DNA from: an uncultured bacterium
GTDB taxonomy: Bacteria > Hydrothermota > UBA3073
Reading direction: 5' to 3'
DNA: 47,226 nt
NCBI GenBank assembly: GCA_964422625.1
Contig: CAYRBN010000001.1
Span: 1 to 47,226 of the forward strand
A program made the position numbers and the translations under genes. Shown here one piece after another: positions 1-42,845 of this stretch; position 1 is the stretch's first letter, and each line of letters starts with the position of its first letter. Under the pieces are notes generated by a model. The model was not told where the DNA came from and made no database searches. It saw only the letters and a program-made list of their open reading frames with translations.

Positions 1-67
1 GAAGGGCAAAAAAACCATCAATATATGCTTCCCATACTTTCTTCATTCTCTTAAAGTTATCTGTCAT
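1..67 (-). CDS. 5' end of an unidentified ORF running off the window (MTDNFKRMKKVWEAYIDGFFAL...)
   Basis: ATG at 67 lies 17 nt downstream of the zinc-ribbon ORF stop on the same strand. Only 22 codons are visible and nothing is recognisable. Confidence 0.2.
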   Translation of the reverse strand, partial: MTDNFKRMKKVWEAYIDGFFAL

Positions 68-84
68 TTCAAGAACTTCGTAAC

Positions 85-315
85 CTATAATAAATCCTGT
101 GCTATTGAAACAATTTCATCAAAATCATATTCATCAAGATCAGTGTAACATTTTGAACATTTAAAATAGTTTGTTTCCCCGTCATCGGGATAAGCAGTAT
201 CTCTCTTTCTCACAATCCCATCCTCAATTTCGAAAATAGTATTTCTCCGTTCCGATAGACTAAAACAAAAATCTCTACTCCCGCACTTTTTACAGACATA
301 TTCTACCTTATTCAT
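85..315 (-). CDS. small zinc-ribbon protein (two CxxC pairs), third gene of the R-M-like operon
   Basis: CKKC...CSKC pairs in 76 aa. ATG at 315 is 2 nt after the Mrr-like stop (318-320), with GGAGG inside the last codons of the upstream gene. Confidence 0.55.
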   Translation of the reverse strand: MNKVEYVCKKCGSRDFCFSLSERRNTIFEIEDGIVRKRDTAYPDDGETNYFKCSKCYTDLDEYDFDEIVSIAQDLL

Positions 316-317
316 AA

Positions 318-1334
318 TTACCTCCGTTTAGGTCTCAATCTATCTAAGGGTAATTCTTCGCCTGTCTTTAGATCCTTATACTTCCAAAAACGCCACCCAT
401 TAACAGGTAAACCATTCTGCACAGCCCTACCCGCTCCAGAAGGTGAGCGAAAAACTTGATTATTATATATTACTTTATTCGGCGAAAAATAAACAGCATA
501 GTATAATTTACCTTTATAGTGAGCAAATATCTCTATCCCTTCACTTTCATCAAAAATTTCTCTGGAAGGAATGGCTTTAATTAAATCCTCAGGTGAAATT
601 CTTAAAAGAGCAATTTCATCTTTTATAACCCCTATTCCATTTTCACACATTAATTCAACAAGTTCCTTCCCATTCATTAGCGAAATAGGAGCTTTGTATA
701 GGTCACTTGCTTCTTCTTGGGCAGGATTAGAAAAATCTGAAGTTGTAATTATTAGTCCTTGTTCGTGAGGGCCTAAACTTCCTCGTAATTGAGCAATAGT
801 CGAACTTTGGACATTATTACGCCACCGTTTTACCTGTATGCAGACTTTTGTTCTAATAACATCCCCAACAACGAGTTCACCCTTTACATCTATTCCTCCA
901 TCTCCTGTTCTTCCCACAATCTCAACATTTTCGAAACCTAAATTTCTTAACACTTCACCAGTTAATTCCTCGAATTTTGTTGGATCGATAGAGAGCAAAA
1001 TTTCTAAAAGCTGGCTTTTAACTTGGTTGTTTTTATTCCTAATATCCGCAAATATTCCCTTGGGCTCAAACTCAGTTAAAGAATAATACCCCTTACCGTA
1101 AGAAATAAATCTAGACTCTTCTCCTGTCCTTCGGGTTTTTCTTATTTCAGAATTTATTACAGATGATAGGTTGCCCGCTGTTATCAAATCATTAGAGTCT
1201 AATAATCCTTCTTCAAATGCTTTATTTGCAATTTCTCTGTAATCCATGGGTTTTTTATCACTAAATTCCTTTAGAATTTTATAGGCAATCTCAACATAAC
1301 TCAGAGCATTCAGTTTGTGGTGATTTTCATTCAT
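318..1334 (-). CDS. Mrr-family restriction endonuclease with N-terminal winged-helix (HARE-HTH/Mrr_N-like) and C-terminal RAMA/DUF4357-like domain
   Basis: Mrr_cat signature (FEELTGEVLRNLGF...GDGGIDVKG...IQVKRW...GLIITTSDFS). C-terminal motif SPSGAGRAVQNGLPVNGWRFWKY. Start moved to ATG 1334 (MNENHH), which overlaps the methylase stop by 8 nt (ATGAATGA) and follows GGGAGGA. Confidence 0.8.
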   Translation of the reverse strand: MNENHHKLNALSYVEIAYKILKEFSDKKPMDYREIANKAFEEGLLDSNDLITAGNLSSVINSEIRKTRRTGEESRFISYGKGYYSLTEFEPKGIFADIRNKNNQVKSQLLEILLSIDPTKFEELTGEVLRNLGFENVEIVGRTGDGGIDVKGELVVGDVIRTKVCIQVKRWRNNVQSSTIAQLRGSLGPHEQGLIITTSDFSNPAQEEASDLYKAPISLMNGKELVELMCENGIGVIKDEIALLRISPEDLIKAIPSREIFDESEGIEIFAHYKGKLYYAVYFSPNKVIYNNQVFRSPSGAGRAVQNGLPVNGWRFWKYKDLKTGEELPLDRLRPKRR

Positions 1335-2649
1335 TGAGTCCTCCCATCTCATGACCCAAATCATTTTTTTCAAGTTTACTAACAGAATCAAAAGTTTTTA
1401 TCCTATTACTCTCTTTTTTCTTATTCTTTATAAAAAGCAATATCGGATAAACCGAGATATTTTTGAAAATTTCAAGGTTTGAAATGTCCACTATTTCCTC
1501 AATACTGAAATTGTCCAGGATACATTTCCTTAACCATCTTGCTGATTTCAAAACTTGAACCTTATTTGGAATAATATATCCAAACATACCAGTTGCATTT
1601 AGTAAATCCAATGCCATTTTAATAAAACAAAAATATAGATCAAACGCTCCCTTTGCAACTTCAGGAAAGTTTTCTCTACATACTTTTTTCAACTCACCGG
1701 GCATCTTCTTTGCCTCTAAATACGGAGGATTTCCAATAACAAAATCAAATCCACCTTTGAATTCTCGCATCTTATTTTTTAGGCAGAATACGGTTTCATT
1801 ATCACTGGAGTCTCTTTTGTTCACCGAGTTAGTCAAAAATAAATTAAATCCTTTAGTCTTAAATGTCGGATTGGTTTTCTTGATCTCTTCTAATATGTCA
1901 AAAGTAGCCAATAGCAGATTTAATTCAGATAGTTTAAGTGAAAATGGATTTATATCTAACCCCCATATATTGTTCTGCAGTATCTCAAAAATGGAAGAAT
2001 AACTATATTTTTTTCTTTTTAGATTTTTAATTAAAATGTTAGCTGCTCGTAAAATAAATGCACCACTACCACAAGAGATGTCTATTATTTTTTTATTCTT
2101 TAAATCAGCACTTATGGTATATCCTACACGAGTCAAAATATAATCTATAATTTCATCTGGAGTATAAACTTGCCCAAGCAATATTCTTTCTTCTTTGCTA
2201 ATAAATTGCTCATAAAGTTTTCCTATCAAATCAGTATCTACATCTCTAAAATCGTATTTATTAAGTAAATCTAATAGTTGCAACTCAAGATGTCGTGGTG
2301 GGACATAATAGGTATATACCTCATCGTTAGCAAGATTGAAATACCTATCTTCAAAGTGTTCATAAAATTCATTCATAGACTCATATAAATCATTTTTTAA
2401 TGGAACAGATAGAAAATCATTATCGATGCAATACTTCATAAAAATTGCTTTACCAAAATAAAGAATAATTGCTTCCAACATAAATTTGTTCCTGTCAGTT
2501 ATTCCTGTGGTTTCCAAAAATATTTGGGTATTGGATGATTTTTGGGCGTTATCTATAAATGTTTTTAATAAGTCATGGAATTCTTTCAAAATTATATTGA
2601 AAACTTGCTTATCAGAAAAATTAATTTTGTGTTTAAATAAATACGCCAT
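1327..2649 (-). CDS. gamma-class N6-adenine DNA methyltransferase (Eco57I/TaqI-like catalytic core)
   Basis: Motif I DISCGSGAFIL lies upstream of motif IV VIGNPPY. Only about 130 aa follow NPPY, so no obvious TRD. Confidence 0.85.
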   Translation of the reverse strand: MAYLFKHKINFSDKQVFNIILKEFHDLLKTFIDNAQKSSNTQIFLETTGITDRNKFMLEAIILYFGKAIFMKYCIDNDFLSVPLKNDLYESMNEFYEHFEDRYFNLANDEVYTYYVPPRHLELQLLDLLNKYDFRDVDTDLIGKLYEQFISKEERILLGQVYTPDEIIDYILTRVGYTISADLKNKKIIDISCGSGAFILRAANILIKNLKRKKYSYSSIFEILQNNIWGLDINPFSLKLSELNLLLATFDILEEIKKTNPTFKTKGFNLFLTNSVNKRDSSDNETVFCLKNKMREFKGGFDFVIGNPPYLEAKKMPGELKKVCRENFPEVAKGAFDLYFCFIKMALDLLNATGMFGYIIPNKVQVLKSARWLRKCILDNFSIEEIVDISNLEIFKNISVYPILLFIKNKKKESNRIKTFDSVSKLEKNDLGHEMGGLNE

Positions 2650-3002
2650 TTTTCACATTCTCCTTCTTATACATAGCGACTTCTGTATAAGATTTACATT
2701 CAACACTAATTCTAAATTTGAGACTCAAGAATAGCCCCTTTATATTTGGACTGAATCTCTTTAACGCTTAACATCTTTCTGCCTCCTTAATTTTTTGCAC
2801 CATTATGGCGTCTAACTTCTTGTATTCACGAAGTCCAACTCTCTAAGCCTCTTTATGAGAATAGGACCTTCCGCCCCCTCACCCTTTGCAACTACTATTA
2901 TGCAACCTGCATACAGCATAGAGGGCTGGATTTTGTGATTACAACATTTCAAAGTCTGTTCCTGACAGGCTCAGGAATGAAAACCTGTTCCTGACAGAAC
3001 CT

Positions 3003-3022
3003 GCCCCGGCGAAAGCCGGGGC
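3003..3022. repeat. GC-rich hairpin GCCCCGGC-GAAA-GCCGGGGC (8-bp stem, GNRA loop)
   Basis: Perfect inverted repeat read directly from the sequence. No flanking T-run on either strand. Confidence 0.6.
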
Positions 3023-3066
3023 TCAGAAATTGCGAAGTGCAAATTTACAACCTTAACCGCATTGGA

Positions 3067-3126
3067 GGTCTGCGGACAGGGACAAGCCCTGTCCCTACAA
3101 TGTCCGCAGGGTTATTTTTGCACAGC
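3067..3126 (+). repeat. GGACA-family compound hairpin (short variant of the element at 25868-25948)
   Basis: Outer stem CTGCGGACA/TGTCCGCAG encloses GGGACA-agccc-TGTCCC. Flanks ggt... and ...gggttatttttgcacagc are shared with the 25868 copy. Confidence 0.7.
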
Positions 3127-3179
3127 CTCAGTAGCTTGCTACTGCTTGCATTACCAAGGTAATGCACTCCATTGAAACT

Positions 3180-3345
3180 GACACCTGACCAAAGACGGTT
3201 ATCAGTTATCGGTTATCGGTAAAGACCAACATCAAAGACAGTTATTAGTTATTGGTTATTAGGGCAATGGGGTACTTCATCCTTTTTCCTTTATCCCCCT
3301 ACCACCTGCCACCTAACAAACTAACTAACCAACTAACTACCTGCC
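3180..3345 (-). repeat. concatenated tandem-heptamer arrays downstream of acs
   Basis: Read on the minus strand: gttagtt-type, ggataaa-type, aataacc-type (ctaataaccaataactaataac), ccgataa-type and caggtgt-type units, each in 2-4 degenerate copies. Confidence 0.85.
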
Positions 3346-3352
3346 ACCTGAA

Positions 3353-5344
3353 CTACCCCTCCCTACCTGCAATCAAGGAATCCACTACTGATGGGTCTGC
3401 TAATGTAGAGGTATCACCTATGGCAGAAATCTCGCCCTCGGCTATCTTTCTCAAGATTCTACGCATTATCTTGCCAGAACGGGTCTTTGGTAGGGCATCA
3501 GTAAACTGTATCCTGTCCGGGGTTACAATAGGCCCCAGCTCCGTTCTAATATGTTTAATAAGGGTCTTTTTAAGGTCATCCGATGGCTCCATACCCTGCT
3601 TCAGGGTAACATAACAGTAGATACCCTGTCCCTTAATCTCGTGTGGGAAACCTGCTACTGCTGCCTCTGTTACTGATGGATGGGAGACAAGCGCACTCTC
3701 TACCTCAGCAGTGCTGATTCTATGACCAGAGACATTCATCACATCATCAATCCGCCCCAAGATCCAGTGGAACCCATCTTTATCTATCCGACATCCGTCA
3801 GCACTCCAATATTTGCCCGGGTACATTGAGAAGTAGACCTTCTTTATAAGCTCGTTCTTTTTGTCACCATATACCCCACGAAGCATGCCAGGCCAGGGAC
3901 CCGTAATTACCAGAGACCCCCCTTCATCTATATCTGCAACTGTTCCATCAGTCCTTAAGACCTCGGTTTTCACCCCAAAGAAAGGCATTCCTGCTGAGCC
4001 TGGTTTGGTTGGGATAGCACCTGGAAGTGATGTGAGCATATGTCCACCGGTCTCAGTCTGCCACCAGGTATCCATTATCGGACATCGCTCCTTCCCAATC
4101 ACTCTATAATACCAGATCCATGCCTCTGGATTGATGGGCTCTCCAACCGTTCCAAGAACTCTGAGGCTTGAGAGATTATGCCTATCAGGCCATTCCTCCC
4201 CATATCTCATAAGCGCCCTTATGGCTGTGGGTGCCGTATAGAAGATATTGACCTTATAATTCTCAACTATGTTCCAGAATCTGTCAGGCTCAGGCCAGTC
4301 AGGCACACCCTCAAACATAAGGGATGTTGTCCCGTTTGACAGGGGACCATAGACAATGTATGAATGCCCTGTTATCCAGCCAATATCTGCTGTGCACCAG
4401 AAGATATCGTCATCCTTAATATCAAATACCAATTTAGTGGTAAGGTGTGTATATAGAAGATACCCAGCAGTTGTATGCAAGACCCCTTTTGGCTTACCAG
4501 TTGTACCACTGGTATAGAGAATAAAGAGAGGGTCTTCTGATGACATCTCTTCACACTGACAGGTGTTCTCAATATCATCCGCCTTTATCTCATCATTCCA
4601 CCAAAGGTCTCGCCCTGCTGTCATATTCGGGCTGGTATTCCCTCTGTTATAGACAATGACCTTCTCCACATCAGGACACCCCTGTAGGGCAGAATCTACC
4701 TTACCCTTAATATCTATCGCCTTTCCTCTACGGGACCCTGCATCTGCTGTTATAACAAATTTAGAGTCAGAGTCGAGTATTCGGCTCTTTAATGCCTCTG
4801 CACTGAATGCAGAGAAGACAACAGAGTGTATGGCTCCAATCCTTGCACAGGCTAAAAGGGCAATAGCCAACTCAGGAATCATAGGCAGAAAGATAGTCAC
4901 CACATCCCCTTTTTTTACCCCAGATTTTTTTAACAGATTGGCAAATCTACAGACCTCTGTGTGCAGCTCTTGATAGGTGAGCCTCCTTTTCTCATCCTCT
5001 TTTTCTCCCTGCCAGAGGATTGCTACCTTATCTTTTTTAGACGAAAGATGTCTATCGAGGCAGTTATAGGAGACATTGAGTCGTGCCCCAGAGAAGAATT
5101 TGAGATAAGGTTCCTCAACCTCCCCTATCTTTGAAAAGTCGTGCTCCATCACCTTATCCCATTTCTTAAACCAGACAAGGTTCTCATCTGCCTGTCTTGC
5201 CCAGAATTTTTCAGGAGCATCTATGGACTCCTTATAGAGTCTCTTGTACTCCTCCATACTCCTGATATGTGCCTTCTCACTTATCTCTTTGGGAGGATAA
5301 AATATCCTATCCTCTTTCATCATAGCTTTCATTCCCTTTGCCAT
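3353..5344 (-). CDS. acs: acetyl-CoA synthetase
   Basis: 663 aa with AMP-binding motif [11 protein letters not shown] and Acs-typical length and termini. RBS CAGGAGGGAGAA precedes ATG 5344. Confidence 0.95.
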
Positions 5345-5504
5345 TTCTCCCTCCTGGTATAGTACTCATAGACAGTTTTATTACCTATGAGTATTGGTTA
5401 AGTAAGTAAGTCAAATACCCTAATAATTTACTGATCTATACAGATGTCAAAAAGCAATCGTTCTTTGTAGAATAGAAAAGGTGGTTTGGCAGAGCCTCTC
5501 TGTT

Positions 5505-6689
5505 CTATTGAAGACTACCAAACGGTGAGATTGCTCTCAGTTTTTGAACAATCCGTGGCAAAACCTCCATAACATAGTCTATATCCTCTTCTGTATTATC
5601 CTTGCCAAAGCTGAATCTGATAGACCCCTGGGCTATCTCCGGTGAAATTCCAAGAGACAGAAGAACAGGGGAAGGCTCTAATGAGTCAGATGAGCAGGCA
5701 CTTCCACTGGATACTGCAATACCTTCATAATCCAGATTGAGTACCATTGACTCTCCCTCTACATATCTGACACAGATACTTAATGTCCCACCAAGTCTCT
5801 TTTCTGGATGCCCATTTATTAAACAGTCATCTATCTTCTCTACAATAGCCTGCTCTAATCTATCTCTCAAAGCCTTCAGTCTTTCCTCATCCTGTTTTTG
5901 CATAGCAATTTCACAAGCCCGACCTAATCCAACAATGCCAGGTATATTCTCGGTCCCTGCTCTTCTCCCCCTCTCGTGATGCCCCCCGTGTATGAGGCTC
6001 TCAATCTCTGTTCCCTTTCGGATAAAGAGAGCTCCAATTCCCTTTGGACCATAAAATTTGTGAGAGGATAGTGACAGGAGGTCAACTCCAAGGTCTCTCA
6101 CATCTGTATTAAGTTTTCCAACTGTCTGAACTGCATCAGTATGAAAATAGATCCCTGGTCTGTTCTTCGTTCTTCTATCTTCGTTCACTTTCTGAAGGAG
6201 TTCGCCAATTTCCTTGATGGGTTGGATCGTTCCTATCACATTATTTGCATGCATAATAGTGACTAAGACTGTCTTATCAGTAATAGCGTCTCTAAGGGCA
6301 TCCAGATCCACAATCCCATATTTATCAACACCGATGTATGTTAGATTAAATCCCTGTCTCTCAAGCCACTTACAGGTATTAACCGCTGCAGGATGTTCTA
6401 TTCTGGAGCTTATTATATGATTGCCTCTCTCTCTAACAGCAACCCCTTTGATTGCAAGATTGATTGCCTCTGTGCCTCCTGATGTGAAAAAGATCTCTTC
6501 TGGTTTGGCATTGAGGATTTTTGCAACCTTCTCTCGTGCCTGTTCTCGTGCCTCCTGTGCCTGTTGTGCGAATTGATAGATACTTGAAGGGTTACCATAC
6601 AACTCATTGAAATACGGGGTCATTGCCCTTACTACATCTGGGTCTGTGGGAGTGGTTGCGTTATGGTCCAGATATATAAACTTTCTCAT
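5505..6689 (-). CDS. nifS: cysteine desulfurase (NifS/IscS class V aminotransferase)
   Basis: PLP-lysine context SSHKFYGPKGIGAL and active-site loop SGSACSS. 394 aa. Confidence 0.9.
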   Translation of the reverse strand: MRKFIYLDHNATTPTDPDVVRAMTPYFNELYGNPSSIYQFAQQAQEAREQAREKVAKILNAKPEEIFFTSGGTEAINLAIKGVAVRERGNHIISSRIEHPAAVNTCKWLERQGFNLTYIGVDKYGIVDLDALRDAITDKTVLVTIMHANNVIGTIQPIKEIGELLQKVNEDRRTKNRPGIYFHTDAVQTVGKLNTDVRDLGVDLLSLSSHKFYGPKGIGALFIRKGTEIESLIHGGHHERGRRAGTENIPGIVGLGRACEIAMQKQDEERLKALRDRLEQAIVEKIDDCLINGHPEKRLGGTLSICVRYVEGESMVLNLDYEGIAVSSGSACSSDSLEPSPVLLSLGISPEIAQGSIRFSFGKDNTEEDIDYVMEVLPRIVQKLRAISPFGSLQ

Positions 6690-6779
6690 AGTCCACCTCC
6701 TGTTAACGGTTTGCGTGTTTGCGAAATTAAAGAAACTTAATAATCTACGAAAACCTGCGTCCTAAAAAGAGAGCATTTT

Positions 6780-7865
6780 TCAATTTTCATTTTTCATTTT
6801 GCATTGAGCAATGGTCCCTCCCCCCACCACTATTTCACCATCATAAAAGACTATTGCCTGCCCTGGAGTGATCGCCATCTGTGGTTCTACGAATTTTACC
6901 AGAATATTCTTTCCATCAAGAGGTGAAATCTCTGCGGGGATCTCTTTGTGACGATATCGTATCTTTGCCTTTAATTTAACTGGCGCTTTTAATTCTTTTA
7001 TAGCTATCCAGTTCAGATCAGAGGCTATAAGCTCATCTCCAAATAAATCCTCTCTTTTGCCCACCATAATAGCATTTCGCAGATAATTCATAGCAATCAC
7101 ATATAATCGCTCTATTGATTTTGATAGATTTAGCCCTTTACGTTGTCCTATAGTATAAAATGGGATTCCCCGGTGTTCACCAATAATCTTGCCCTCTTTA
7201 TCCAATATAGGTCCTGGCTTGGACGCAAAAAACTGGGAATAACCTCCAGCAATGAAATCCTGACTCTCCTGTCTCTCATCAACACCAAGCCCGAGGTCTT
7301 TTGCTATTTTCCTTGTCTCTTCTTTGGTGTAAATGCCCAGAGGAAAAAGAGAGAATCCAAGCTGCTCCTGAGATAAGGAGTAAAGGAAATAAGACTGGTC
7401 TTTGTTTTCATCCACACCCTTTTTTAGGAGATGTCCATCTCCTGTTTTATTCTGTTCTATTCGGGCATAATGACCTGTCGCGAAATAATCAAACGAACCC
7501 TTGAGCCTTTCAATCAAAGCACCAAATTTCACCAAGCAGTTACACCTGATGCAAGGGTTAGGAGTTCTTCCTATGAGGTATTCCTTATAGAAATAGTCCA
7601 AAACATAGCTCTTATACTCCTGTTTCATATCAATTATATTGAGTGGGATATCTAATCTCTCTGCCACCTTTCTGGCATCTAATATATCTTCTCTCTCTCC
7701 TGGTCCATAGCATGCATGCCGAAGCCCTTCCTTGCAAGTGCTCTCCCCATCCCATATCTTCATTGTTACTCCGGAGAGTTGATACCCCTCTTCTTTAAGT
7801 AGAGCGGCGGCAACGGATGAATCCACGCCTCCACTCATTGCTATGACAACCCGCAATTTAGACAT
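6780..7865 (-). CDS. mnmA: tRNA 2-thiouridine(34) synthase
   Basis: PP-loop VVIAMSGGVDSSVAA, the CIRCN cysteine and the MnmA C-terminal barrel region. 361 aa. Confidence 0.9.
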   Translation of the reverse strand: MSKLRVVIAMSGGVDSSVAAALLKEEGYQLSGVTMKIWDGESTCKEGLRHACYGPGEREDILDARKVAERLDIPLNIIDMKQEYKSYVLDYFYKEYLIGRTPNPCIRCNCLVKFGALIERLKGSFDYFATGHYARIEQNKTGDGHLLKKGVDENKDQSYFLYSLSQEQLGFSLFPLGIYTKEETRKIAKDLGLGVDERQESQDFIAGGYSQFFASKPGPILDKEGKIIGEHRGIPFYTIGQRKGLNLSKSIERLYVIAMNYLRNAIMVGKREDLFGDELIASDLNWIAIKELKAPVKLKAKIRYRHKEIPAEISPLDGKNILVKFVEPQMAITPGQAIVFYDGEIVVGGGTIAQCKMKNEN

Positions 7866-8062
7866 ACTTAGTTATAGTGAAAAAATGCTAAAACCACAAT
7901 CAATATGGATATTCCTTTTTGGGGCGGATCTAAAGATCCGCTACTACATTAGCTTTGGATATCCATCCCGTGTAGTAGCGTAGCTTTAGCTACGCAAAAA
8001 CGAATTATTCACCGGTAACTACTTAGTTATAGTGAAAAAGTTGAAAATCACTTGGAATTTGT
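7866..8062. repeat. structured spacer bounded by a 19-nt direct repeat, containing two hairpins
   Basis: acttagttatagtgaaaaa occurs at 7866-7884 and 8021-8039. Hairpins are GCGGATC-taaa-GATCCGC+tactac (7923-7946) and gtagta+GCGTAGC-ttt-AGCTACGC (7972-7995). Confidence 0.8.
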
Positions 8063-40259: not shown

Positions 40260-40502
40260 TCAGCACCTTTGAAACCGCTGTATAGGTTTTTTTATTGCAA
40301 GACTGAAATTTCTTTTTAACTCCCAGCTCTTTTCAGGATTTTTAGTATCGGCAATTATTAAGAATACTCTATTATTATCCCCAAATCTCTGAGCTCCTTG
40401 TAATTCATAAAGATATTTCTCTACTTCAACAAACAGGACTTTTGAGTAAGCTATATTTACCCCAATATCCTTTTCTCTGCAAGTTTGCAATAATCTTTGC
40501 AA
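40260..40502 (-). CDS. hypothetical ORF (possibly a gene fragment)
   Basis: TTG start immediately after an in-frame TAA and no RBS. AT-rich like the neighbouring island. Confidence 0.25.
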   Translation of the reverse strand: MQRLLQTCREKDIGVNIAYSKVLFVEVEKYLYELQGAQRFGDNNRVFLIIADTKNPEKSWELKRNFSLAIKKPIQRFQRC

Positions 40503-40575
40503 TTATCTATAAGTATAAAACTTCTATTAAGTTTTTTAGAAAATGGGAACTTTTTACTAATATGGCAGCATCTCA

Positions 40576-40746
40576 TTAATCTATTGCTTTTAGTTTCTTA
40601 AAAACAGTCTGCAACTCTTTATCTGTAATTTCAACTCCTTCCCATTTCAAGTAATCTATGATTTGCTCCTTAATAGGTCTCATCCATCCAGCAGAAATTC
40701 TACTCTCTAAATCTACAATTAGGTCTTTTAATTCTTCTTTTAACAT
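40576..40746 (-). CDS. 56-aa ORF overlapping the methylase stop (TAATG); absent from the ORF track
   Basis: Hand translation: MLKEELKDLIVDLESRISAGWMRPIKEQIIDYLKWEGVEITDKELQTVFKKLKAID, stop at 40576-40578. ATG 40746 shares one base with the methylase TAA (40746-40748). Confidence 0.4.
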   Translation of the reverse strand: MLKEELKDLIVDLESRISAGWMRPIKEQIIDYLKWEGVEITDKELQTVFKKLKAID

Positions 40747-41513
40747 TATGAGCTGCTTCCTTTCAGAGACATAGTATTACCTATCCTATCTTCTGCGATT
40801 TTGCAATATTCTTTACAATTATCGATAAGAACGAAGTTACGTCCAAGTTTCTTTGCTACAACTCCTACAGTTCCACTTCCTGCAAACATATCTAAAACTA
40901 TATTATCTTGATAGGAATAAAACTTAATTAATCTATATACAAGTTCTTCCGGAAATGGCGCAGGATGTCCTATTTTTTTTCTACTTTCTGGTGTAAAAGT
41001 CCATATACTCCTTGTATATTTCATAAATTCTTCAGATGTCAAATCACATCTATCTTTATCACCCTCTAACCTAAATTTATCTTTAGAGAATATAATAATA
41101 TATTCGTGTCTTGGCACTATATGAGGGTTGCTACAAGATTTCCAACTTCCCCAGGCACAATGTTTCGCTGCGCTATTCTTATTCCAAATTATTGTTCCTC
41201 TATATAACATTTCCAACTCTATACACTGTCGAGTAAAAGCACTATATGGTGGGTATGTTATATCTTGTCTTTTATTTTCTCCATAATTTATACACAATCT
41301 TCCACCATTTACTAAAATTCTCTTTGTTGCTTTCCATATTTGATACATCCACTCAAAATATTCATTATAGTCCTTTCTATCTTTATAATTTATGTAAGGT
41401 TTATCTAAATTGTATGGTGGTGAAGTAATAACTAAATGGATAAAATTATCAGGTACCTTCCTTAAAATTTCTAATGCATCTCCACAGATTACTTTATTCA
41501 TTTCTACCATCAT
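40746..41513 (-). CDS. beta-class DNA methyltransferase (N4-cytosine or N6-adenine; SPPY type)
   Basis: Motif IV LVITSPPYNL is N-terminal and motif I DMFAGSGTVG is C-terminal. RBS is GAGGTAG. Confidence 0.85.
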   Translation of the reverse strand: MMVEMNKVICGDALEILRKVPDNFIHLVITSPPYNLDKPYINYKDRKDYNEYFEWMYQIWKATKRILVNGGRLCINYGENKRQDITYPPYSAFTRQCIELEMLYRGTIIWNKNSAAKHCAWGSWKSCSNPHIVPRHEYIIIFSKDKFRLEGDKDRCDLTSEEFMKYTRSIWTFTPESRKKIGHPAPFPEELVYRLIKFYSYQDNIVLDMFAGSGTVGVVAKKLGRNFVLIDNCKEYCKIAEDRIGNTMSLKGSSS

Positions 41514-41523
41514 AGTGGCTACC

Positions 41524-42597
41524 TCAATAATTTGTTATCTCAAATTTTATTGTATTATTATCAATTGTGTATGTTACAAATATTGGCTTTCTTAAACTTA
41601 ATGAATAATTCTTTGCTCTTTCTATTGCTGAAGGATGTATCTCTTTTCCAATAAAAATGGGTTGTATCACATCTAAATTATTATTTGTTAAATTTTTCGA
41701 TGCCCATTTTACATATTCTTCTAATTGTATCACATCCGCTTGGGAAGGTATATTTTTTATTGAGTCTTTTTTGAGTTCTATTATTGATATTTTATATCTA
41801 ATATTTTTGTTATTCACTTTCCTGGTGTGATACACAAGAACATCTATGTTCCCACCTGCAACAGTAACAGGCACATAATTAGCAAACCATTCTATATCAT
41901 CTAAAGGCCCTAAAAATTTTTCTGTTCCCACTGACTCATCATCAATATGTTGAATCAACCATCCCTCTAAAATTTTTTCGTATTTTACACAGCTATTCTC
42001 ATCAGGCTCAAGGTCAAATTTTATAGGTTCTTTTCTAATAGGAAGATAAGGTTGGAAACTTTTGAGTTCTTGCATACCATCATTTGCTTTTAGCAAAAGT
42101 TCTATCAATTCATTCTCTTCCTCTGGAGATAAATGAGTAATACTTTTTCCTCTTTGCAATGTTTTTCTATAAAAGAGCGATCTTAATTTTATTGAGGCGA
42201 GAAGTTCGCCAAATGCTTTCATCTCTGATATGGGATTTTTCAAATACATATACGGCCTGATCTGTATCCTTGTAGGATATATTAACTGTCCTTCCACATA
42301 GTGAGGATTTTCTTTGCTTCCACAGATAAACTCATCAGAAAACGCATCAATTCCATTGAATTCTTCTTCATCAATAAACGGTTCACTTATTGCTTTATAA
42401 ATACCGTGAAATCCTACAGTTTGTTCATAGAAAAATATCTTATCATCTCTTCTGACACAACACATATCAGAACAAAGATCTGCTTTTGTTTTCTCTGACA
42501 ATTTCTTAGTTACATCTTCACCAATAATAGCTGCAATTCCCCTATCTCTTACAATAGGAAAAGTTTCTGGGGTAACAATAAAAACGTGCGCTGCCAT
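41524..42597 (-). CDS. candidate restriction nuclease: N-terminal PUA/EVE-like fold plus C-terminal NucS/PD-(D/E)xK-like nuclease
   Basis: The C-terminus has E(KILEGW)...GNIDVLVY...ISIIELKKD...QLEEY, a D..ExK arrangement. The N-terminus HVFIVTPETFP...DDKIFFYE..GFHGIYKAIS resembles a PUA-like barrel. Assignment is by motif only. Confidence 0.5.
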   Translation of the reverse strand: MAAHVFIVTPETFPIVRDRGIAAIIGEDVTKKLSEKTKADLCSDMCCVRRDDKIFFYEQTVGFHGIYKAISEPFIDEEEFNGIDAFSDEFICGSKENPHYVEGQLIYPTRIQIRPYMYLKNPISEMKAFGELLASIKLRSLFYRKTLQRGKSITHLSPEEENELIELLLKANDGMQELKSFQPYLPIRKEPIKFDLEPDENSCVKYEKILEGWLIQHIDDESVGTEKFLGPLDDIEWFANYVPVTVAGGNIDVLVYHTRKVNNKNIRYKISIIELKKDSIKNIPSQADVIQLEEYVKWASKNLTNNNLDVIQPIFIGKEIHPSAIERAKNYSLSLRKPIFVTYTIDNNTIKFEITNY

Positions 42598-42611
42598 TCT
42601 GTCCCTCCTTT

Positions 42612-42845
42612 TTAATAATTTTCCTCAATTATTTTTCTGACAGCATTGTCATTATAGAAATCTACATAATCAAAACAACCTATCAGCTTACTAGAAGAAG
42701 AATAAATTTCTATCCCAGGTATATCTCCTCTTATAACTTCAAAACTTTGTCCTGTTTCTAAATCAATACTTAATTCTCTTGTATCGATATCAAGATAATT
42801 TCTCACCCTAAATTTTTCTCCTTCATACAGAATAAATTTCTCCAT
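42612..42845 (-). CDS. 77-aa protein of unknown function, first gene of the island
   Basis: Strong RBS AAAGGGGGA 4 nt before ATG 42845. No recognisable motif. Confidence 0.45.
   Translation of the reverse strand: MEKFILYEGEKFRVRNYLDIDTRELSIDLETGQSFEVIRGDIPGIEIYSSSSKLIGCFDYVDFYNDNAVRKIIEENY

Follow-up and report, generated by a model that had tools for sequence, protein, structure and literature searches.

A truncated adenine methylase beside an Mrr-family nuclease is probably the stump of a restriction-modification operon whose centre was replaced by a two-gene cassette

When a methylase gene without a target-recognition domain (TRD) runs directly into a nuclease gene, are the two halves of an unusual restriction-modification (R-M) system, or something else? 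The question is raised by one end of a 47,226-nt stretch of DNA from an uncultured bacterium of the Hydrothermota lineage UBA3073 (GCA_964422625.1, contig CAYRBN010000001.1; the whole stretch is hereafter called the window), which forms the first 47 kb of contig C1 of a metagenome-assembled genome (MAG) of 1.49 Mb and 97% completeness (G000). Four minus-strand open reading frames (ORFs), all in the same direction, make up the locus (window 1-2649): a methylase, an Mrr-family nuclease, a small zinc-ribbon protein, and a further ORF that starts with an ATG at 67 and continues past the contig end. The original prediction, made from the DNA letters alone, took the methylase for the R-M partner of the nuclease, with recognition supplied in trans by the latter, and remarked that an Mrr-type enzyme is an odd companion for a methylase. 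The remark was borne out; the methylase appears to be an operon remnant. Window 85-2649 is probably a horizontally acquired, AT-rich Type II R-M operon whose centre has been replaced by a promoterless cassette of two genes, the nuclease and the zinc-ribbon protein.

The methylase itself provides the first part of the answer. It matches the Pfam families Eco57I (4e-34) and N6_Mtase (1.4e-22), and its motif I (DISCGSGAF, residues 190-198) precedes motif IV (GNPPY, residues 306-310) in the gamma order. The N-terminal helical domain and the catalytic domain are intact and the TRD is deleted; the protein ends 130 aa past NPPY, and Pfam finds no TaqI_C in its 440 aa, in agreement with the predicted absence of a TRD. 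Its closest homologues are 672-731 aa long and do have TaqI_C. Identity to two of these, 97% to P0001 (672/693 aa) and 81% to P0003, extends only to residue ~432-434, past which the window protein has six unrelated, junction-derived codons (MGGLNE). TaqI_C occupies residues 520-641 of the intact orthologue at L004:5283-7361 and is present in P0001 and P0003, and tblastn maps residues 1-434 of the 693-aa enzyme (M693) to window 2649..1348. On this comparison the 440-aa methylase is residues 1-434 of an Eco57I/TaqI_C-type methylase of ~693 aa, and would be a remnant rather than a designed partner. A normal TRD and membership of an ordinary Type II family, which had been named as grounds for giving up the original prediction, do apply to the ancestral 693-aa gene; the window protein itself is without a TRD.

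The remainder of the operon can be read from a nearly identical genome. P0001 is encoded on contig L004 of a WOR-3 assembly (GCA_021129395.1), which is syntenic with the window through mnmA, a nifS-like gene, acs and the methylase; window 7935..1366 corresponds to L004 1..6566 at 99.65% identity over 6.5 kb (blastn). At the same site L004 has an intact operon, in which the 693-aa methylase is followed by a 247-aa Bpu10I-like nuclease (R247). L004 6567-7922, which holds the methylase TRD and the first ~184-186 codons of R247, is replaced in the window by 1365..95, a segment of ~1.27 kb consisting of the nuclease and zinc-ribbon genes. Homology returns at window 94..1, equivalent to L004 7923..8016 (95.7%, blastn), and tblastn maps residues 184-217 of R247 at the window start, where the match is cut by the contig end. 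Because R247 matches RE_Bpu10I (1.7e-5, at the gathering score) and has a D...ECK motif, which lies upstream of the breakpoint, we take it to be the original endonuclease of the operon. The replacement removes the methylase TRD together with the catalytic part of the endonuclease, a loss predicted to inactivate both. Of the components of a Type II R-M system, the locus therefore has neither a methylase with a TRD nor an intact cognate endonuclease, the D...ECK part of R247 having been replaced. The further ORF from 67 is indeed present, as predicted, but its start is an internal methionine of the Bpu10I-like remnant, so it is not a separate gene.

The ancestral operon is complete on a 237-kb contig (L002), where a 93-aa ORF, M693, R247 and a 230-aa N6_N4 methylase stand in a row; this second methylase is seen in both L002 and L003. 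The 93-aa ORF is full length in L002 and degenerate in both the window and L004, only its residues 1-19 being recognisable. No other contig of G000 overlaps the window start or carries the rest of the 247-aa gene or the neighbouring methylase. The same junction of methylase stump and nuclease recurs on independent contigs from other samples (L001 and L005), so it is not an assembly artefact.

The fine structure of the junction was confirmed from the coordinates in every respect predicted, namely the gene order, the overlap of methylase and nuclease, and the spacing and Shine-Dalgarno sequence of the zinc-ribbon gene. The nuclease ATG (1334-1332) and the methylase TGA (1329-1327) overlap by 8 nt within ATGAATGA, while the zinc-ribbon ATG stands 2 nt past the nuclease TAA, with a GGAGG within the end of the nuclease gene. 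The claimed AT-richness was likewise found, at 31-36% G+C over positions 1-3000 versus 41.3% for the genome and 46-48% over acs. Coordinates are collected in Table 1. Between acs and the methylase, at window 2951-2997, lie two direct copies of CTGTTCCTGACAG whose starts are 29 nt apart; L004 is identical to the window at these repeats, which could be an operator or a repeat element.

Table 1. Positions of genes, remnants and the inferred crossover at the start of the window
Feature	Window position	Strand	Content or basis
Methylase	2649..1327	minus	440 aa; Pfam Eco57I + N6_Mtase
Mrr-family nuclease	1334..318	minus	338 aa; HARE-HTH + Mrr_cat + RAMA-like
Zinc-ribbon protein (cassette gene 2)	315..85	minus	76 aa; CxxC ... 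CxxC
3' remnant of the 247-aa Bpu10I-like endonuclease, residues ~184-217	2..103	minus	blastn, tblastn
Left-crossover interval of the recombination that brought the cassette	1427..1504		window/L004 mismatch pattern
20-codon remnant of the 93-aa ORF	2712..2774	minus	tblastn orf93[1-19]

The pattern of mismatches between the window and L004 also indicates how the cassette arrived. From 7935 down to 1427 they differ only at 7503, 3329-3326, 2304 and 1504, and then at 15 positions within 1426-1376, where the window instead matches L001, a diverged allele that already has the replacement (a derived allele). Since the pattern switches in this way, we infer that the cassette entered by homologous recombination from a donor with a replaced allele; the switch places the left crossover inside the methylase gene, ~80-160 bp upstream of the junction. 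The part of the stump above the crossover would then be the resident, recently functional allele, and its intactness therefore says nothing about present function. A methylase tree is consistent with repeated exchange of this kind: the four derived alleles do not cluster but are mixed among intact ones, in pairs of derived with intact (window with P0001, support 100/100; L001 with P0013, 100/95), forcing at least three changes of state. Given derived alleles so interspersed and a junction of single origin (below), the cassette appears to move between methylase backgrounds by recombination. We found no terminal repeats or target duplications around the cassette, where short repeats occur at chance level only, and no recombinase accompanies it; for want of such repeats and duplications, a transposon or integron mechanism was considered and set aside as unsupported.

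The stump is not of one length in all carriers of this cassette. It comprises residues 1-434 of the methylase in the window and 1-440 in L001 (Joint Genome Institute, JGI), a contig that stops inside the nuclease gene; in L005 it comprises residues 1-314, ending just past NPPY, with the second methylase reduced to residues 209-230, and in L006, L007 and L008 only residues 1-171, without a catalytic domain, with residues 117-230 of the second methylase. Wherever the right side is assembled (window, L005 and L006-8), the order is the same, nuclease, zinc-ribbon gene and then R247 from residue ~184-189 onward. As this right junction is common to the loci, it is consistent with one original replacement whose left side has eroded since. 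Elsewhere, then, the stump has been cut to 314 or 171 residues while the nuclease stays conserved, which argues that the stump is dispensable; together with the TRD of the 693-aa homologues, these shorter stumps speak against the predicted partnership of methylase and nuclease.

The settings of these loci are worth recording in their own right. In L005 (5793-9572) the whole eroded island, made up of a remnant of the 93-aa ORF, the methylase stump, the nuclease, the zinc ribbon and the endonuclease remnant, sits between tsf and pyrH within the conserved rpsB-tsf-pyrH cluster. In L006 (9427-11863), as in L007 and L008, the nuclease/zinc-ribbon cassette (85% amino acid identity) stands with R-M remnants on a contig with archaeal markers (aIF2-gamma, TrmB), which implies that bacteria and archaea have exchanged it.

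The nuclease is under strong purifying selection, the ratio of nonsynonymous to synonymous substitution rates (dN/dS) being 0.075-0.098, and 0.12-0.30 for the zinc-ribbon gene. The stumps give 0.10-0.15, equal to pairs of intact genes. We considered this low ratio as evidence that the stump functions and rejected it, as the tree and the crossover show stumps to be renewed from intact alleles.

Is the replacement peculiar to one operon? We found 1879 homologues of the nuclease, most of them 329 aa long and ~60% identical across phyla that include Bacteroidota, the candidate phyla radiation (CPR), Ignavibacteriota and Acidobacteriota, and examined 24 family loci from species-representative genomes. 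At 16 of these the nuclease has on one side an N6_N4 methylase gene of which only residues 1-27 to 1-272 of 305 are left, and on the other an Eco57I-like gene beginning at residue ~341-421, 473, 712 or 893 of 971. When intact, the arrangement is Type IIG-like and has two genes, M1 (305 aa) followed by a nuclease-methylase of 969-971 aa with an N-terminal PD...ELK. In two CPR genomes (L015 and L025) the nuclease follows residues 1-355 of a 703-residue LexA-methylase, and next to it, on the opposite strand, a 233/240-aa homologue of R247 is reduced to residues ~10-100; when complete, the LexA operon consists of LexA-methylase and a convergent nuclease. With a further locus (L037) that has fragments of an R240 gene and an N6_N4 methylase, recognisable R-M wreckage is present at 19 of the 24 loci; no R-M remnants were found at the other five. 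In each of three operon layouts, a cassette of the nuclease plus a small ORF has taken the place of the methylase's 3' part and of the catalytic part of the adjacent endonuclease, the small ORF varying by cassette (a zinc ribbon of 70-79 aa, a protein of ~100 aa, or one of 57-61 aa).

Intact and replaced alleles also meet within one MAG. A Dysgonamonadaceae genome (G277) has an intact (L100, C225) and a replaced (L019, C121) Type IIG allele on two short contigs that break off at a common point, their last 346 bp being 95.7% identical, as is expected of strain-level polymorphism that breaks assembly. Among 20 nuclease-bearing genomes this is the one exception; the other 19 have no close intact Type IIG enzyme elsewhere, a figure that lacks a background frequency and so carries no statistical weight. 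Separately, the LexA-methylases are of note because they join three parts (LexA DNA-binding domain, S24 peptidase, Eco57I-type methylase) in ~700 aa; they are found in CPR and other uncultured genomes with the convergent 233/240-aa nuclease (L015:6841-7977, L025:542-1675, L091:339-2450, L090:5001-6590); such a protein would be an SOS-cleavable repressor-methylase.

What the nuclease does must be judged mostly from its domains and its company. Pfam matches all three of the modules predicted for it: HARE-HTH, the winged helix (residues 12-89, 4e-10, above the gathering score), Mrr_cat, the core (residues 114-229, 3e-26, model positions 2-115 of 115), and RAMA, which is below threshold (residues 272-333, 5e-6, 26.8 bits versus a gathering score of 35.2) and is matched at E<1e-3 in 18 of 18 aligned family members. 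In the alignment of these 18 sequences (mean column identity 75%) the catalytic residues D145/D149 ... Q167-x-K169 are invariant. PADLOC assigns PDC-S02 (PDLC04796, 5e-36), a match confined to the nuclease core at residues 92-247, and mREase_IV (3e-19); in NCBIfam, residues 301-335 align weakly (E=0.22) with the C-terminal end of the CcrM model. An AlphaFold model of moderate quality (predicted local distance difference test score, pLDDT, 66, with domains at 55-90; predicted template modelling score, pTM, 0.39) was used for domain-level matches only, and among these Foldseek places MspJI (7e-7) and AspBHI (4e-5) at the top, with CcrM also listed. AspBHI and MspJI are likewise the only solved relatives found by sequence profile, and both are modification-dependent enzymes.

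The genomic setting points the same way. A search of G000 for a second copy of the displaced methylase or nuclease came back empty, and nothing in the genome is closely homologous to M1 or RM, which accompany the nuclease as flanking methylases at other loci; several other methylases are present, at 25-42% identity. G000 alone carries the nuclease among 272 genomes of its phylum, which argues that it was acquired horizontally. In many genomes a family member has only eroded methylases around it or none at all, so the enzyme is evidently tolerated without a protecting methylase, and since it stays intact where the neighbouring methylases are eroded or absent, it is not expected to cut unmodified host DNA. 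As other methylases coexist with it, its recognition would be context-specific or aimed at another modification. The nuclease is thus probably a solitary, modification-dependent restriction enzyme of a Type IV-like kind.

The zinc-ribbon protein is less readily placed, having no Pfam or PADLOC family above threshold. Its gene directly follows the nuclease at 78% identity in L005 and 53% in L006-8, so that its predicted conservation beside the nuclease holds for these close relatives. Type IIG-context loci likewise have zinc-ribbon ORFs of comparable layout behind the nuclease; homology to these was tried and rejected, the hidden Markov model comparison (E=7-9) not being significant.

We hypothesize that the HARE-HTH and RAMA modules read modified foreign DNA, with the zinc-ribbon protein as an accessory of the nuclease. 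A function in reading DNA modification has been proposed, though not yet established, for both domains, and fusions of RAMA to nucleases are still named as future work (PMC11037411). The 5' end of the methylase is kept in every variant, and the stump ORF stops at, or a few nucleotides before, the nuclease ATG; for this reason we suggest that the stump serves as a promoter and translational-coupling leader. The promoter of the former methylase gene would drive transcription of the nuclease, and coupling to the stump via ATGAATGA its translation; the stump would have no methylase function, and the cassette would spread through operon remnants by homologous recombination.

Several observations weigh against a replaced operon core with a functionless stump. 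A promoter scan returned 10 promoter-like sites versus 13.2 expected, and no terminators. The dN/dS of the stumps is as low as that of intact genes, which may also reflect selection acting on them, for instance on the N-terminal domain. The complete methylase catalytic domain is kept in the window and L001 and could retain binding of S-adenosylmethionine or weak activity. Moreover, the contig stops 84 nt past the zinc-ribbon gene, leaving the region of the second methylase beyond its end, and modification dependence is argued from the fold class and from tolerance of the enzyme without a methylase.

The alternatives differ mainly in what they make of the R-M remnants. Possible, if on balance unlikely, is that the anatomy is as described but its link to R-M is incidental: decaying operons in defence islands would be permissive landing sites, the target of the nuclease would be unrelated to the displaced methylases, and the remnants would be neutral debris. 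Progressive erosion of remnants on both sides, a cassette without terminal repeats or recombinase, and a genome that tolerates other methylases are all in keeping with this, as are flanking N6_N4 methylases that may stay active beside the nuclease at some loci, contrary to a strict incompatibility. It is harder to reconcile with three unrelated operon layouts being hit alike, each losing the nuclease catalytic part and the adjacent 3' part of a methylase, with the R-M wreckage at 19 of 24 family loci, and with the coexistence of intact and replaced alleles in near-identical genomes or within one MAG.

It is tempting to speculate that the mark recognised by the nuclease is the adenine methylation made by the same R-M systems whose place it takes, the intact and replaced alleles forming a complementary polymorphism like that of DpnI and DpnII; we offer this tentatively and regard it as rather doubtful. 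Every replacement seen kills the old endonuclease and truncates the methylase, which fits, as do the loss of a resident methylase on acquisition of Mrr and the alternative Dpn cassettes of Streptococcus pneumoniae (both discussed below). At several Type IIG-context loci, however, the Pfam domain of M1 survives whole (residues 1-256 to 1-272 of 305), and M1 may still be active there beside the nuclease; erosion of an orphan methylase is, moreover, also expected under neutrality. If the idea is true, the only viable way to gain the nuclease is a replacement that destroys methylase and old endonuclease together, and the complementary polymorphism arose independently in at least three families of R-M operon and crossed between bacteria and archaea, with stumps as homology arms.

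Much less probable is that the nuclease is a conventional Type II cutter of unmodified sites, with protection from an unseen downstream N6_N4 methylase or from another methylase of the genome. The whole Pfam domain kept by some Type IIG-context N6_N4 methylases, and the several other methylases of this genome, would allow for it, but the downstream methylase survives only as residues 117-230 (L006-8) or 209-230 (L005), several genomes have the nuclease without a flanking methylase, a 97%-complete genome lacks a close homologue of a partner methylase, and the fold is nearest to modification-dependent enzymes. A working R-M-like complex of TRD-less methylase and nuclease, with recognition from HARE-HTH and RAMA and the zinc-ribbon protein as third subunit, is hardly credible despite the tight coupling and 8-nt overlap, the catalytic domain intact in the window and L001, and the low stump dN/dS, since the stump is residues 1-434 of a 693-aa enzyme intact at the same site in a 99.65%-identical contig, other cassette carriers have only 314 or 171 of its residues, the wider nuclease family stands with different methylase remnants or none, and the low dN/dS is explained by recombination with intact alleles.

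That the cassette replaced the core of an R-M operon has consequences beyond this genome. For annotation, "orphan" or "TRD-less" methylases beside Mrr-type nucleases can be operon stumps, not R-M systems or new classes of methylase. The nuclease family is widespread and, at ~60% identity across phyla, very conserved, and it turns up repeatedly in the gutted centre of R-M operons that modify DNA to N6-methyladenine (m6A). The long-discussed antagonism or complementarity between Type IV enzymes and methylases can thus be put to a direct test with a defined set of genes, in which the nuclease, alone or with its zinc-ribbon partner, is set against the intact 693-aa methylase of the sister allele. 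Such a test would offer a first functional approach to HARE-HTH and RAMA as modification readers in prokaryotes.

Two other regions of G000 deserve mention. Window 40260-42845 (minus strand) is a second AT-rich island (30-33% G+C) with a 255-aa N6_N4 methylase (SPPY, Pfam 5e-49) and, upstream, ORFs of 357 and 77 aa without a Pfam match; it may be a small R-M system with an unclassified endonuclease. On contig C10 (1410-4513) an 814-aa protein, Eco57I-like at its N terminus and N6_N4-like at its C terminus, looks like a fused double methylase and adjoins a 225-aa ORF, in another R-M-like locus.

Type IV Mrr-family enzymes, cassette-like variation of restriction loci and antagonism between Mrr and methylases are known kinds of system that are joined here. 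The window methylase resembles the Eco57I/TaqI-like gamma-class N6A methylases (solved examples are 8cxz, 7lni, BseCI and TaqI) over its catalytic domain, with motifs I and IV, but these and the 693-aa orthologues have a TaqI_C recognition domain, which it lacks. With the class of E. coli Mrr and MspJI/AspBHI the nuclease has in common an Mrr_cat core of the PD-(D/E)xK variant D...QxK, a DNA reader of winged-helix type at the N terminus, and a solitary gene without a cognate methylase. Its readers are HARE-HTH and a C-terminal RAMA-like module, in contrast to the winged helix of Mrr or the SRA-like domain of MspJI; it is ~20% identical to the solved enzymes and has a small zinc-ribbon gene attached.

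The exchange itself has its closest parallel in Streptococcus pneumoniae, where DpnI (a methyl-dependent nuclease with a small ORF) or DpnII (two methylases with a nuclease that acts on unmethylated DNA) occupy one site as alternative cassettes (PMC3812788, PMC3573125). The window and L004 likewise have alternative gene sets at one site in near-identical genomes (flanks 99.65%), exchanged by homologous recombination, and the cassette, like DpnI, joins a probably methyl-dependent nuclease to a small protein. Unlike the neutral flanks of DpnI/DpnII, those here are truncated genes of the displaced R-M system, and for the present locus complementarity through mark reading is only hypothesised. Acquisition of Mrr can drive the loss of a resident Type III Mod methylase (PMC3152355), and the immigration control region of E. 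coli varies in a cassette-like manner (Sibley & Raleigh 2004, as cited in PMC12707154). As with the cassette described here, restriction loci in these cases vary by replacement and an Mrr-type gene is set against a methylase; they involve separate loci or swaps of whole genes, whereas here a cassette replaces the core of an R-M operon, and does so in three operon families.

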